Part shown: positions 16,658-20,436 of the stretch, in pieces
Layout of the letters: every line of letters begins with the position of its first letter
Numbering within the stretch: the first letter of the stretch is position 1
Source: a virus
Lineage: Duplodnaviria > Heunggongvirae > Uroviricota > Caudoviricetes
Reading direction: 5' to 3' (one strand)
DNA length: 64,000 nucleotides
Virus record (IMG/VR): IMGVR_UViG_3300033273_000374
Coordinates: 138,914-202,913 of that record
Program-made: the position numbers and the translations under genes
The notes under the pieces: model-generated
The model's database searches: none
What the model was told of the DNA's origin: nothing
The model's input: the letters and a program-made list of their open reading frames with translations, nothing else

Positions 16658-17615
16658 GGCGTTTTCTCAACAGATTAATTTTTAAACTGTTTGATTGTTT
16701 TGCATCAAGTATGCTTTTGAGTGTAAACAGTTTACCATAACGCACAACAGCATCATTTACATCTTTAACATCGTTGTGCCATTCAGGAAAACTCACACTC
16801 CATCCATATTCTAATGCATCATCTATCAAACGTTGTCCTGCTCTATCTCTGTCCGGCACCAATATAACTTCTCTAGCCAATGTGTCAATGATTTGTGCTT
16901 GTTGTTCACTGCACTGATTGCTCATTATGCCCACACCACCTATGCACATTGCATCCAACAGTCCTTCAGTGACCACACAAAACCTAGCATTAGACAACTG
17001 ATTATCAATACCATACACATAGCCACTGTCATGGTTAGTAAAGTATTTGGGTCTACCTGTATCGTCTGTGGTCCTTGCACTGAATCCTATAACTTCGTTG
17101 TTCCAAGTGAAAGGCACAATGATGCGTTTCCACATGCCTGCAGGTTTGCTGTTGCTCCATAATAATTTATGCACAGGCAAACATCTGTCAACAGCATACT
17201 GTTGTATGTGTTTGGGCGCACGATCTAATGCTACCACTCCTTCTGGCAATGGTCGAGGTTTAAACTCTACAACAATAGCATCTTCGTCTGGTTCCAACAG
17301 TTCAACTGTGTCTTTGATACGCAGTGCTTCAATGTTTAGCATCTGTCGTGTGTTTTCGTCAATGCCCAACCATGTAAGCAGTTTGCGCAGTTTAAAACTG
17401 ATGTGCCGGCCGGGCTGCCAGCCTGTTTTAAATCCACAGTTGAAACAGTGATAACTCACAGCATCACCATTCATTATCACACCGCCTCTGCCTCTACGAT
17501 CTGTGCTTTCGCCATTGTGATGACAGCATACAGCATTAAACGAAATCCAACCACCACTGCTGGTTTTACGCTTGCCAGGCAACGCATCAAATACACTTTG
17601 TTGTATACTATTCAT
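16650..17615 (-). CDS. 61: DNA primase (T4 gp61-like)
   Basis: Zn-binding CC..H / HCFNC, TEGLLDA TOPRIM, PDRD, KDVND. Confidence 0.9.
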   Translation of the reverse strand: MNSIQQSVFDALPGKRKTSSGGWISFNAVCCHHNGESTDRRGRGGVIMNGDAVSYHCFNCGFKTGWQPGRHISFKLRKLLTWLGIDENTRQMLNIEALRIKDTVELLEPDEDAIVVEFKPRPLPEGVVALDRAPKHIQQYAVDRCLPVHKLLWSNSKPAGMWKRIIVPFTWNNEVIGFSARTTDDTGRPKYFTNHDSGYVYGIDNQLSNARFCVVTEGLLDAMCIGGVGIMSNQCSEQQAQIIDTLAREVILVPDRDRAGQRLIDDALEYGWSVSFPEWHNDVKDVNDAVVRYGKLFTLKSILDAKQSNSLKINLLRKRLG

Positions 17616-18172
17616 GTGTTTATTATAGCATCTAACTCGTTTTTGATCAATTGAAAAATACGTTTGTGTCCTCGCCCATTTGGATGCAAGTGATCAGCAA
17701 TGTACTGTTTTCTGTCCTGCATCAACACATCTACCATGTGTGGCACACAGTTGATATGCATGTGTTTGATACCTCGTAGTTCACAAGCATTAGAGACTAT
17801 TTGTTTTGGGTACCAGTCATGCACATCTTCAATATAGTTGCTTAATTGGTTGTTTACATAATCTACTACACTTGCTGTTAGCAGACTGCCACGTTTCTTT
17901 TGTTGTATGTAGTTGAGATGCTCCCAACAACCTGTGTGGTTATTGTACCAACTGTTGCGATTGGGATGTGACCACCCAAACAGCACCACATCATCTGATT
18001 GTATCTGGTGTTGCGTTTCGCAAAAATGTAGTGCTATCCATGGATTACTGGCACTGCTCTGACTGTGCTGTACAAAATCATAACCATAATGGTCAGCGGC
18101 TATAAGCCCATAACAGGTAGTGGCTTCTTCTCCTAGGCTTACACTGCAACCATATTGATGTATAGTAGGCAT
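17612..18172 (-). CDS. SGNH-hydrolase-like protein
   Basis: YGCSVSLG, SASN, GWS...R, HLHPNGRGH. Confidence 0.65.
   Translation of the reverse strand: MPTIHQYGCSVSLGEEATTCYGLIAADHYGYDFVQHSQSSASNPWIALHFCETQHQIQSDDVVLFGWSHPNRNSWYNNHTGCWEHLNYIQQKKRGSLLTASVVDYVNNQLSNYIEDVHDWYPKQIVSNACELRGIKHMHINCVPHMVDVLMQDRKQYIADHLHPNGRGHKRIFQLIKNELDAIINT
17622..17650 (-). promoter_or_regulatory. Sigma70-type promoter of primase (leaderless)
   Basis: TTGATC-17nt-TATAAT with TG extension, 6 nt before ATG. Confidence 0.65.
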
Positions 18173-18855
18173 CAGTATCTATCCACACAGTAACCATCAT
18201 ACCAGTGTTGATCCTGAATCCAGGTGTGGTTGCGTACTTTTTCCTCTGCAGCAGCAAACTCTAATCTTGTCTTATCATCAACTTCTAGTTCAGGTAAAAC
18301 ATAATCCAAATAGTTTATGTGCTGTTGTGGTGTTGGATGGTAGTCATCATCAAATGCTGCATTGTGCCAATCACCTTTATAGATGATGTTGTGTACACTG
18401 GGTCTAATTGTTTGTAGTGTCTTTGCATATGTTTGTGTTGGATCATGAAACAACTGTATCTCTTGATCACTGTCAAAGATATTTAAATCAATCATGCTTA
18501 AAAAATAATATTCACACCCAATACCTTCTAGTATAAGTTTTGCTGCGTGTATGTTAGCACAATCTCTAATAAAACTGCCATAGGTATCTACGATTGTAGC
18601 ACCAGGTGTTTGCCACGATCCATCACTATAACTGTCTTCTCTATCACGTGATGTCCACATAACAATCACAGTGTCGTCAGCTGAAATAGTGTGCCTTGCA
18701 TCACATTCTGCAATGCTCCACAGTATAAAACTATTGCCACCACCACCTTTTCCAAAGTTGTAGTATTGATCAAACTGAGGTGCTAGAGCATCTGCCCATG
18801 TGGGCCACTTGTAGCGTGTAAAACTACAACCAAATGTAAACAATCTGCCATGCAT
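18172..18855 (-). CDS. SGNH-hydrolase-like protein
   Basis: FGCSFT, WPTWAD, GGGN, MWTS.DRED, DYHPTP..H. Confidence 0.7.
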   Translation of the reverse strand: MHGRLFTFGCSFTRYKWPTWADALAPQFDQYYNFGKGGGGNSFILWSIAECDARHTISADDTVIVMWTSRDREDSYSDGSWQTPGATIVDTYGSFIRDCANIHAAKLILEGIGCEYYFLSMIDLNIFDSDQEIQLFHDPTQTYAKTLQTIRPSVHNIIYKGDWHNAAFDDDYHPTPQQHINYLDYVLPELEVDDKTRLEFAAAEEKVRNHTWIQDQHWYDGYCVDRY

Positions 18856-18871
18856 ACATTTAATTATACCT

Positions 18872-18901
18872 AAAAAAAAGCAGGCAAATAAAATGCCTGC
18901 T
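18872..18901 (-). terminator. Rho-independent terminator closing the microprotein operon
   Basis: AGCAGGCA/TGCCTGCT stem followed by a T-run on the minus strand. Confidence 0.8.
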
Positions 18902-18915
18902 CATCTTTACCGACT

Positions 18916-18972
18916 TTACTTTTTTGTTTTACGAGTAAAAAACTCTACTTCTTCGTCTGTGTAAGGATACAT
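18916..18972 (-). CDS. 18-aa micropeptide MYPYTDEEVEFFTRKTKK
   Basis: Hand translation; start overlaps upstream stop (TGATG); ends just before terminator. Confidence 0.5.
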   Translation of the reverse strand: MYPYTDEEVEFFTRKTKK

Positions 18973-19070
18973 CACACTGTGCCTGCTATTAACACCGGTA
19001 GCAATAGATATCCTGCTTGAATTCCAAACAGTATACTACAACCTAATGCTGCTTTAAGTACATTCATCAT
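18972..19070 (-). CDS. 32-aa hydrophobic membrane peptide
   Basis: MMNVLKAALGCSILFGIQAGYLLLPVLIAGTV; ATGA overlap; GGAG RBS. Confidence 0.55.
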   Translation of the reverse strand: MMNVLKAALGCSILFGIQAGYLLLPVLIAGTV

Positions 19071-19195
19071 AGTGTCTCCAACCTTTTTGCTTCTGCATGG
19101 TAACCAAGACGAATAAGTTCCGCTGCTGCCTTAGCACGGCCTGCTCGTCCTAGCATTTCCCAAAATTTATTTGCACATTTTGTTACTGTTTGCAT
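19067..19195 (-). CDS. 42-aa small protein (GRAKAAAEL.R.GY motif)
   Basis: MQTVTKCANKFWEMLGRAGRAKAAAELIRLGYHAEAKRLETL; AGGTGG RBS. Confidence 0.65.
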   Translation of the reverse strand: MQTVTKCANKFWEMLGRAGRAKAAAELIRLGYHAEAKRLETL

Positions 19196-19196
19196 T

Positions 19197-19331
19197 TTAT
19201 ATCCACCTTTTTGTATCATATGAATAACGCTTCATAATTTCTTCTACGTCATATGTGTTTTTTGCATATTGTAGTTCTTTTTCCATTGGAGTCATTGTTA
19301 TTTTTTTCCAAAGTTTTTTAATGTTACACAT
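19197..19331 (-). CDS. 44-aa small protein, DUF3563-like
   Basis: MCNIKKLWKKITMTPMEKELQYAKNTYDVEEIMKRY...; AGGAG RBS. Confidence 0.55.
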   Translation of the reverse strand: MCNIKKLWKKITMTPMEKELQYAKNTYDVEEIMKRYSYDTKRWI

Positions 19332-19494
19332 TATAATCAACTCCTGCAACCAGTGGGTGTTTGTCCAAGATTTCACTGTATGCTTGTTGCCATTGATCGC
19401 CATATTCTATGCGATACCAGTCTTCAACATGTTTGCTACGGTCTGGTTGTGATCCAAAAACCGTCTGTAGATCATCAAACAACTTTGCAGTCAT
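19324..19494 (-). CDS. 56-aa small protein (W..IEYG..W motif)
   Basis: Start reassigned to MTAKLF with TAGGAG RBS at 19502-19507. Confidence 0.65.
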   Translation of the reverse strand: MTAKLFDDLQTVFGSQPDRSKHVEDWYRIEYGDQWQQAYSEILDKHPLVAGVDYNV

Positions 19495-19499
19495 TTTTG

Positions 19500-19650
19500 T
19501 TCTCCTATTAGTTTTTAGATGCTTGAGGAAAGCAATACCGCGGTCTCTTCCGCCGTCTCCACGATGCCTGTTTGCAGCACCACTTGTAAGGCATGGGATA
19601 TGCCCTGGTCTTTCCCAGTGCCACTCATTTTTTCTGAGCTGAGGTCGCTC
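19500..19650 (-). ncRNA. Structured GC-rich leader RNA (cis-regulator or sRNA)
   Basis: Run of hairpins: CTGG-GAAAGA-CCAG, GGCAT-ATCCC-ATGCC, CGT-GGAG-ACG, GCGG-AAGAGA-CCGC, TGCTT-TCCTC-AAGCA. Confidence 0.55.
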
Positions 19651-19675
19651 TGTGCAATGCACAATGTTATTTATA
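19651..19675 (-). promoter_or_regulatory. Late promoter TATAAATA with adjacent palindromic operator TGTGCAATGCACA
   Basis: TATAAATA at 19668-19675; palindrome at 19651-19663. Confidence 0.65.
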
Positions 19676-19731
19676 ATACAATAAGTAGAAATTGTTGTCA
19701 ATGATTAGATGTGCGTTAAAATAACGCAATG

Positions 19732-20436
19732 CTAAGCCAGTATCTTAGCGTCAATGTAAGGTATCATCTGTTCAACAAACAATTCATGTCCACGTTCATT
19801 TGGGTGTTCGCCTCCGGCAAACACACTATCTCCATGTTGTGATCTTAACCAGTCGTGCATGTTGTTGTTACCCATAAATGTGTTATCAAATTTTGGATAT
19901 ACAACAGGGCTTAGGTCACCTTCATAACCTTTTGTTGGAGGAAGTGCATTGAATTGTACATAACGTGCACCATACTGTTTTAACAATGCATTGGTGCTCA
20001 TGCGAAGTGTAACGTCCCATTGCCTCTGATGTCCCAAACTGTGTTTGATCCATTCAACCACACTGTTTCTAAAACAAGCATCACCAGGATGTGGATTGTC
20101 ATTGAATCTTACAAAGCCTGAATGAACCCAACGGTCTTCGTCATCATGATACCAACTCATTCTATCTATGCTGGTCCATGCAACTGCTATAAACAAATCT
20201 TCTCGTGGTGTAGGATTTTGTTGTATGTATTCGCATACAGTTTGCCATATGTATGTGTTACTACCACTGGGCTGGCCTCTGTTGTCATAGGTTGCACCAT
20301 AGTGCTGCGCCAGACGTCCAAGCCACACATGCTGTTCTCTGTAACTAATATTTTCGTGATGTTGATCCCAAGTTGCGTTGGGTGCAACAAGTTCGCTGCC
20401 GTAGGTAAAACTGCAGCCTATACCTATTATGTGCAT
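19732..20436 (-). CDS. SGNH-hydrolase-like protein
   Basis: IGCSFTYG, GSN, AWTSIDR, GEHPNERGH. Confidence 0.7.
   Translation of the reverse strand: MHIIGIGCSFTYGSELVAPNATWDQHHENISYREQHVWLGRLAQHYGATYDNRGQPSGSNTYIWQTVCEYIQQNPTPREDLFIAVAWTSIDRMSWYHDDEDRWVHSGFVRFNDNPHPGDACFRNSVVEWIKHSLGHQRQWDVTLRMSTNALLKQYGARYVQFNALPPTKGYEGDLSPVVYPKFDNTFMGNNNMHDWLRSQHGDSVFAGGEHPNERGHELFVEQMIPYIDAKILA

Follow-up and report, generated by a model that had tools for sequence, protein, structure and literature searches.

A candidate structured leader RNA and five conserved microprotein genes in one transcription unit of a marine jumbo phage

Positions 18872-19675 of the 64,000-nucleotide (nt) stretch analysed here (the window), which is the final 64 kb of a 203-kb IMG/VR record (IMGVR_UViG_3300033273_000374) from an uncultured marine jumbo myovirus, raise the question of whether a row of very small open reading frames (ORFs) behind a structured RNA is a genuine gene unit, and what the RNA does for it. 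An earlier note on this DNA had proposed a promoter, a structured leader, five ORFs of 56, 44, 42, 32 and 18 amino acids (aa) and a terminator, and this overall layout is borne out, with every element on the minus strand and at the position proposed. The interval is one self-contained transcription unit, comprising a structured leader, five small-protein genes (o1 to o5) and a terminator (Table 1). The explanation we consider probable is that of a single unit with a T4-late-type promoter, a conserved leader built as an array of hairpins and acting in cis, five translationally coupled microproteins and a strong terminator.

A leader RNA family with covarying hairpins

The leader belongs to a genuine structured RNA family, which is widespread and present as one copy per locus. 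The first clue was a syntenic contig (L002), with neighbouring proteins 81-96% identical to those of the window, in which blocks of the leader are conserved at the nucleotide level and the hairpins between them have changed on both strands. Homologues were gathered by two exact patterns taken from conserved blocks: a 21-nt pattern at hairpin H1, which recovered ∼36 true loci, and a 20-nt pattern at hairpin H5, which recovered more than 119 contigs and which occurs once in the 203-kb genome fragment. A covariance model (R1) built on 62 distinct cores finds a single match apiece in 142 of 193 IMG/VR loci, so that the family comprises at least 142 viral loci. The model rejects all loci that bear a pattern by chance, including two contigs from bacterial metagenome-assembled genomes that were the only matches of the H1 pattern in bacterial genomes.

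The evidence for structure comes from paired changes. Under the named structure, 83-87% of cells are paired in the model alignments, compared with 24-52% when the partners are slid, and 21-22 of the 26 pairs are changed on both sides; none of 500 shuffles reaches any of the summary measures. A plain MAFFT alignment agrees: paired cells make up 83%, and both partners have changed in 17 of 26 pairs. Pairing by helix amounts to 93-94% for H2, 84-88% for H3, and 100% for both H4 and H5. The covariance model misregisters H1, which was therefore checked by direct parsing, and this reveals a conserved N-A-N-A-G-A hexaloop closed by no fewer than 12 distinct complementary stems, with constant C-A and G-G flanks. 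Plain RNAalifold on the first MAFFT alignment had given two helices, a poor result because the variable hairpins were misaligned, and it was superseded by the hand-set structure and the covariance model.

The architecture of the family is modular. From 5′ to 3′, one or two variable 5′ hairpins are followed by an A-rich or CA-rich linker, H1, H2 (mostly with a UCC-type loop), an optional H3, H4, and H5, after which an A/U-rich spacer of 20-35 nt leads to a strong Shine-Dalgarno (SD) sequence and the ATG. Purine-hexaloop hairpins (H1, H4, and optionally H3) alternate with UCC-loop hairpins (H2 and H5). Minimal members consist of H1 and H5 alone, and some members do without H2, without H3, or without H4. 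Loop-loop (kissing) pairing of the purine and UCC loops was considered by eye, where the constant GGA:UCC core alone fits, and no covariation was seen. Sequestration of the SD by H5, an alternative pairing present in the minimum-energy fold of the window, was rejected, as across 90 leaders the pairing of the SD does not exceed that obtained when the sequence 5′ of it is shuffled; constitutive masking of the SD by the leader is not supported.

The element lies between the promoter motif and the SD and ATG in every locus examined, the exception with respect to the promoter being a variant in two contigs (L098:400-560 and L187). This variant is without promoter and H1, begins directly after the stop codon of the upstream gene, and has an additional long hairpin that separates H5 from the ribosome-binding site of its first-gene homologue (family A, below). 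It may be a read-through or attenuated form.

In the window, the core from H1 to H5 has a GC content of 55%, compared with 39.7% genome-wide; the leader as a whole, put at ∼150 nt in the earlier note, measures ∼170 nt. No Rfam 15 family matches the leader, either over the whole window at gathering thresholds or over the region at E ≤ 10. The freshwater-2 RNA (RF02980) was examined and set aside: it scores 20.3 bits (E = 0.47, against a gathering threshold of 49.9) in one homologue, driven by the SD/ATG stretch, and is absent from 19 other loci and from the window. No paper on the leader RNA was found in the literature. The leader is accordingly put forward as a new candidate RNA family, missing from Rfam 15 and with more than 140 IMG/VR members, although the combination of a structured untranslated-region (UTR) RNA with small-protein genes is of a kind already known.

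Table 1. Features of the transcription unit in window coordinates, in the order of transcription (bp, base pairs)
Feature	Position	Strand	Description
Sigma70-type -35-like hexamer (TTGACA box)	19696..19701	-	17 nt upstream of TATTAT (19673-19678)
TATAAATA	19668..19675	-	T4-late-type -10 motif; conserved 5′ boundary of the element
Leader	∼19667 to o1 start 19494	-	∼170 nt
H0a (palindrome)	19651..19663	-	13 nt; read as 5′-proximal RNA hairpin, 5 bp, 3-nt loop
H0b	19636..19650	-	Hairpin with CCUC-containing heptaloop; stem covaries between homologue groups
Linker	19621..19635	-	A-rich, single-stranded
Leader core, H1 to H5	19517..19626	-	Covariance-model match 82.9 bits, E = 2.4e-19; sole copy in window; 55% GC
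H1	19603..19620	-	4-bp stem, GAAAGA hexaloop, flanks C-A (5′) and G-G (3′)
H2	19590..19604	-	5-bp stem, AUCCC loop; compensatory changes in 5/5 pairs
H3	19563..19581	-	Optional hairpin, 6 bp, 7-nt loop
H4	19538..19555	-	H1 look-alike: 4-bp stem, AAGAGA loop, H1-type flanks; compensatory changes in 4/4 pairs
H5	19520..19534	-	Near-invariant, UCCUC (anti-SD-like) loop; 3 pairs changed on both sides, solely in loci found by the other (H1) pattern
SD region of o1 (AGGAG)	19500..19507	-	8 nt upstream of ATG
o1	19324..19494	-	56 aa, acidic, family A; conserved TEYG-DW-AY core; predicted two helices
o2	19197..19331	-	44 aa, basic, family D, putative remote DUF3563 relative; own AGGAG 9 nt upstream
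o3	19067..19195	-	42 aa, basic, short form of family C; conserved G-RA-AA-EL-G-EAK core
o4	18972..19070	-	32 aa, family F, hydrophobic single-span membrane peptide
o5	18916..18972	-	18 aa, family G, MWPYT-acidic micropeptide; MYPYT in window copy
Intrinsic terminator	18902-18872	-	9-bp stem (5 GC pairs), 7-nt loop, T8; stem begins 13 nt past o5 stop

Five gene families in an exchangeable cassette

Judged by their conservation, all five ORFs are genuine genes of conserved families. A chain caller was run on 100 distinct loci and its ORFs were clustered, which assigned every window ORF to a recurrent family, and family profiles built from other contigs only, with the window left out, rank the o1-o5 frames first among the 2919 six-frame segments of the window. 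The profile E-values are 3e-10 for o1 (family A), 8e-11 for o2 (family D), 1e-12 for o3 (family C), 4e-3 for o4 (family F), and 3.5e-5 for o5 (family G). Codon-position entropy is highest at the third position and lowest at the second in all five families (in family G, 1.24 at the third position, 0.65 at the first, and 0.61 at the second), and the gene order A-D-C-F-G recurs in at least 9 other loci. No Pfam or PHROGs match was found for the window peptides themselves.

The ORF list supplied with the sequence, said in the earlier note to fail on all five, omits o5 and mis-starts o1, o2, and o3, but gives o4 correctly at its 20-aa cut-off. The frames of o1 and o2 overlap by 8 nt, o2 and o3 are 1 nt apart, and the overlaps of o3 with o4 and of o4 with o5 measure 4 nt and 1 nt, respectively. 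Purine-rich ribosome-binding sites lie 7-9 nt upstream of each of o1, o2, o3, and o4; o5 has no clear SD and would therefore depend on translational coupling. The operon ends in a GC-rich stem-loop with a T-run, as is characteristic of an intrinsic terminator.

Family A, always first in the cassette, is a large metagenomic family that comprises at least 400 clusters at 90% identity and is without a Pfam domain; its members, on contigs of up to 319 kb, are unnamed or annotated as 'hypothetical protein'. An exact-pattern search for relatives of o1 found none, an ESM Atlas look-up gave no usable match, and AlphaFold predicts a mere two-helix hairpin with a predicted local distance difference test (pLDDT) score of 69. 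Family D is DUF3563, with 21 of 24 members matching PF12086 at E ≤ 0.01, one of them at 36.7 bits against a cut-off of 26.9. The window's o2 has no PF12086 match at E ≤ 10, yet the family profile built without the window matches it, so the DUF3563 resemblance named in the earlier note is corroborated indirectly, through its relatives, and o2 is probably a remote DUF3563 relative too divergent for the Pfam model. No paper on DUF3563 was found in the literature.

Family C has at least 1111 clusters at 90% identity, and among the best 120 of the 1111, which are of metagenomic origin, none has a functional name or a Pfam domain, so the suggested kinship of the o3 motif with small proteobacterial proteins is not supported. 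In the window, o3 is of the short type and is without the N-terminal CxxC segment of many family C relatives. This segment is common to many family C proteins and some DUF1127 proteins (e.g., L105:1489-1674), which suggests modular small proteins. The membrane peptide foreseen among the ORFs is o4, a hydrophobic single-span peptide and the top match of family F, and the peptide with the MYPYTDEE motif is o5, a member of the conserved MWPYT-type family G, whose members are 13-26 aa long and show the MWPYT-acidic core in 31 distinct versions.

A C-terminal tail of the form N-L-K/R-G-W-V recurs in 46 of 61 DUF1127, 6 of 25 DUF3563-like, and 2 of 81 family A members (examples at L088:2190-2450, L102:6240-6392, and L105:1284-1481); the window's o2 ends in K-R-W-I. 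The tail may serve these families as a common signal for docking or sorting, and we know of no description of an N-L-K-G-W-V tail for the cellular DUF3563 and DUF1127 families.

The other main cassette type consists of A, then B (DUF1127), C, E or F, and G; DUF1127 and DUF3563-like genes alternate as the second gene. A DUF1127 protein, whose gene matches PF06568 above the cut-off, is encoded in 49 of 86 related cassettes, and further genes in other cassettes encode pseudoazurin, DoxX-like, lipoprotein-like, and ATP-synthase-c-like proteins. Cassettes behind the same leader include an ATP-synthase-subunit-c-like protein (PF00137), a pseudoazurin-type cupredoxin (PF00127), and a weak DoxX-like membrane protein (L089:6414-6635, L002:7800-8219, L091:9652-10059), and these energy-related genes hint at an effect on membrane energetics.

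Only two contigs, L002 and L003, share the window's neighbours (L002:7040-8300, L003:1-830). Their flanking proteins are 81-96% identical to those of the window, whereas identity falls to 34-37% for the cassette proteins and the gene set differs; the L002 cassette has a pseudoazurin and is without o2-type and o4-type genes. Near-identical flanks around divergent cassettes point to a hotspot of accessory-gene exchange, and the cassette is, by sequence comparison, a hypervariable island between the conserved leader and the o5-type gene with its terminator. The cassette is flanked by mutually paralogous proteins of ∼190-230 aa (window 17612-18855 and 19732-20436, minus strand) without a PHROG match, one of which is missing from L002.

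Promoter, phage, and likely host

The promoter motif belongs to the element and marks its conserved 5′ edge. TAAATA lies upstream in 103 of 106 unique homologous contexts, ATAAATA in 92, and the full octamer TATAAATA in 56, compared with 13%, 5%, and 2% of random 260-nt windows, respectively. T4-type late units have TATAAATA promoters that are read by gp55 (PMC2984593), and the present unit resembles them in its exact octamer at -10, conserved across homologues with no conserved -35 box, and in that the motif lies directly upstream of many genes of this phage. The genome fragment contains 16 copies of TATAAATA, a total not above chance (12.3 ± 3.5 in shuffles); 12 of the 16 lie outside every long ORF on their own strand and within 200 nt 5′ of an ORF on that strand, and 10 of those 12 are within 30 nt of the ORF start. 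In contrast to T4 late leaders, which are short and unstructured, the phage leader is long and highly structured. The promoter is 'T4-late-type' by sequence only, not by proven late timing.

The window copy also carries a near-consensus sigma70 pair (11 of 12 matches, 17-nt spacer; 19673-19701, minus strand) that overlaps TATAAATA. The -35-like box occurs in 5 of 92 contexts, the window being one, and because a sigma70 pair is confined to the window and one other homologue group, this promoter copy might also be readable by the host holoenzyme.

The surroundings of the unit are phage genes, and the window encodes a primase, a DnaB-like helicase, UvsX, a DNA polymerase, and a large terminase that is 54% identical to the terminases of PA5oct-type and Atu_ph07-type jumbo myoviruses. 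Among 50,697 genomes of cultured phages, neither the DNA of the region nor a family A protein had a match. Elsewhere in its own genome, the phage has 10 transfer RNAs and a permuted two-piece transfer-messenger RNA (tmRNA; G000:C1:125404-125752, outside the window; locus L202) with the tag ANDNFADEDMPLAA, and an alpha-type tmRNA lies within ∼6 kb of the cassette in two related contigs (L095 and L162). Two TATAAATA motifs stand at the edges of the permuted tmRNA locus. We infer Alphaproteobacteria-like hosts because of these tmRNA types taken together with DUF1127.

Possible roles of the leader and its microproteins

In the explanation that we regard as probable, the -10-only T4-late-type promoter would drive an mRNA of which the first ∼170 nt form the modular hairpin array, with a strong ribosome-binding site ∼20 nt past it, and five proteins would be translated by coupling, the first acidic and two-helical, the second and third basic and helical, the fourth a membrane peptide, and the fifth an acidic micropeptide of 18 aa. 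The leader would act in cis, its 5′ hairpins guarding the message from 5′-end-dependent decay and its repeated, conserved hairpin loops binding a protein or the 30S subunit and so setting the yield of the cassette. The basic microproteins (o2 and o3, and DUF1127 in relatives) would be candidate partners of the leader, and the microproteins, for which the earlier note proposed a host-modulating role, may act on host RNA metabolism or membrane physiology.

Several observations weigh against this explanation. The pairing probability of the o1 ribosome-binding site in ensemble folding is 0.55 in the native sequence and 0.54 with the upstream sequence shuffled. The folding energy of the leader is ordinary compared with shuffles (z = -0.78), so its structure rests on covariation and not on energy, and H1 in the first set of homologues and H5 in the second are conserved by construction, owing to the gathering by exact patterns. 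Neither DUF1127 nor CsrA was found in the window or the 203-kb fragment. A search with the gp55-like protein of Atu_ph07 found no gp55-like sigma factor in the 203-kb fragment, which is estimated to be 57% complete. With regard to late timing, the genes behind TATAAATA are mixed, including ribonucleotide reductase beta, a baseplate/tail-fibre connector, and an HNH endonuclease, and the window promoter has the sigma70-like -35 box.

The closest analogue would be the CIN1 loci of Alphaproteobacteria (Rhodobacterales, Rhizobiales; alpha-r14, NfeR), where CcsR/cuckoo RNAs are co-transcribed with DUF1127 genes; these RNAs are UTR-located, processed, and trans-acting, with anti-SD-like loops that pair with ribosome-binding sites (PMC8034643). 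In both systems the UTR of an operon for very small proteins contains an RNA of several hairpins whose loops are pyrimidine-rich and anti-SD-like. DUF1127 genes, found here in 49 of 86 related cassettes, are a further common trait, and an alphaproteobacterial association is likely here too. The phage unit nevertheless stands outside that group. Its loops (UCCUC, AUCCC, CCUC) alternate with purine hexaloops, whereas cuckoo RNAs consist of two hairpins, each with a CCUCCUCCC loop; the element is phage-borne behind a T4-late-type promoter, and its gene content is hypervariable. When cuckoo/CcsR membership was examined by loops, no CCUCCUCCC was found and no Rfam family matched, at E ≤ 10 for the window leader or among the homologues; when it was examined by an adjacent DUF1127 gene, none was found in the window or genome fragment, although 49 of the 86 related loci have one.

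This likeness gives rise to the alternative that the leader is chiefly the precursor of a trans-acting small RNA, cut from the 5′ UTR, whose UCC/CCUC loops pair with the ribosome-binding sites of host mRNAs as in cuckoo/CcsR. Three loops (H0b, H2, and H5) do contain CCUC or UCC, more than half of the related cassettes encode DUF1127, cuckoo RNAs are located in UTRs of DUF1127 genes, at the 5′ or the 3′ end, and CcaF1, a DUF1127 protein, is RNA-binding (PMC8034643); the alpha-type and permuted tmRNAs hint at alphaproteobacterial hosts, and there is no sign of SD sequestration in cis. The missing CCUCCUCCC loops and Rfam match, the lack of a DUF1127 gene in the window cassette, and the invariable position of the element directly before an SD and ORF, even in L098, speak against this alternative, and we consider a trans-acting precursor unlikely. 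A metabolite-sensing riboswitch that gates translation of the cassette is a far less likely alternative still. In its favour, the leader is a structured 5′ UTR that is conserved and lies immediately before an SD, and nucleotides in its loops and junctions are highly conserved, but a riboswitch calls for a fixed aptamer in all members and an expression platform. The modularity of the leader, in which any of H2, H3, and H4 may be missing and the minimal form has H1 and H5 alone, argues against an aptamer; no covariation-supported multi-helix junction or pseudoknot is present, no terminator or SD-sequestering alternative fold is supported, and the downstream genes are non-metabolic.

The two remaining alternatives concern the palindrome and the small ORFs. 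The earlier note had taken the palindrome for an operator, which would bind a host or phage repressor (e.g., at a PhaR-type box) and place the cassette under transcriptional regulation, and a perfect 6+6 inverted repeat 4 nt 3′ of TATAAATA would suit that role. In homologous leaders, however, the site holds unrelated sequences that still form hairpins, or no extra hairpin, and the conserved block 3′ of the promoter is a short A-rich, non-palindromic stretch with GTG. Because the homologues keep hairpin potential there without sequence kinship, the palindrome is better read as a 5′-terminal RNA hairpin, a common stabiliser of mRNAs, and an operator is highly improbable. It is more improbable again that function resides only in the RNA or o1 and that chance frames account for some of the small ORFs, o4 and o5 above all. 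These two are very short, the profile match of o4 is modest, and o5 has no clear SD of its own, but both are the top matches of their family profiles window-wide, their position and order are conserved, and the 31 distinct relatives of o5 keep the MWPYT-acidic core with the third codon position most variable.

The leader also invites comparison with protein-bound or protein-titrating RNAs, such as CsrA-bound leaders and CsrB/RsmZ, which have in common with it repeated short hairpins with GGA at the stem-loop boundary (H1 and H4) and a GGA in the SD. The conserved N-A-N-A-G-A loop is, in contrast, not the CsrA consensus, and the phage fragment encodes no CsrA. To our knowledge, most Alphaproteobacteria lack CsrA. 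The leader gives no Csr-family match; a single weak, below-threshold CsrC match (L113) lies 3′ of its cassette. The proteins can likewise be set beside the known families DUF3563 (PF12086) and DUF1127 (PF06568), which the o2 family and the alternative second gene match, respectively. They differ in that the versions described here are viral and operon-embedded, and that many have the C-terminal N-L-K-G-W-V tail.

More tentatively, and with rather less confidence than we place in the cis-acting reading, the module could be a phage-borne counterpart of the cuckoo-RNA/DUF1127 loci. An abundant, hitherto undescribed class of RNA would then work with RNA-binding microproteins (DUF1127, DUF3563-like, and the o3 family) as a sponge, a processed small RNA, or both, re-programming the post-transcriptional control of the host, with a fast-swapping arsenal carried between the leader and the terminal micropeptide gene.

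An RNA-plus-microprotein module thus recurs in more than 100 ocean viral contigs. Its leader is a candidate RNA family with strong covariation and a defined genomic role, and its five micro-ORF families, which extend down to 13-26 aa and are mostly overlooked by gene callers, are conserved and co-arranged in ocean phages. The cassettes represent an accessory-gene hotspot between conserved flanks and so a case of cassette exchange in jumbo phages. The interchangeability of DUF1127 and DUF3563 as second genes of one cassette suggests related roles, and a leader with two to five tiny proteins offers a tractable system for asking what DUF1127 and DUF3563 do.

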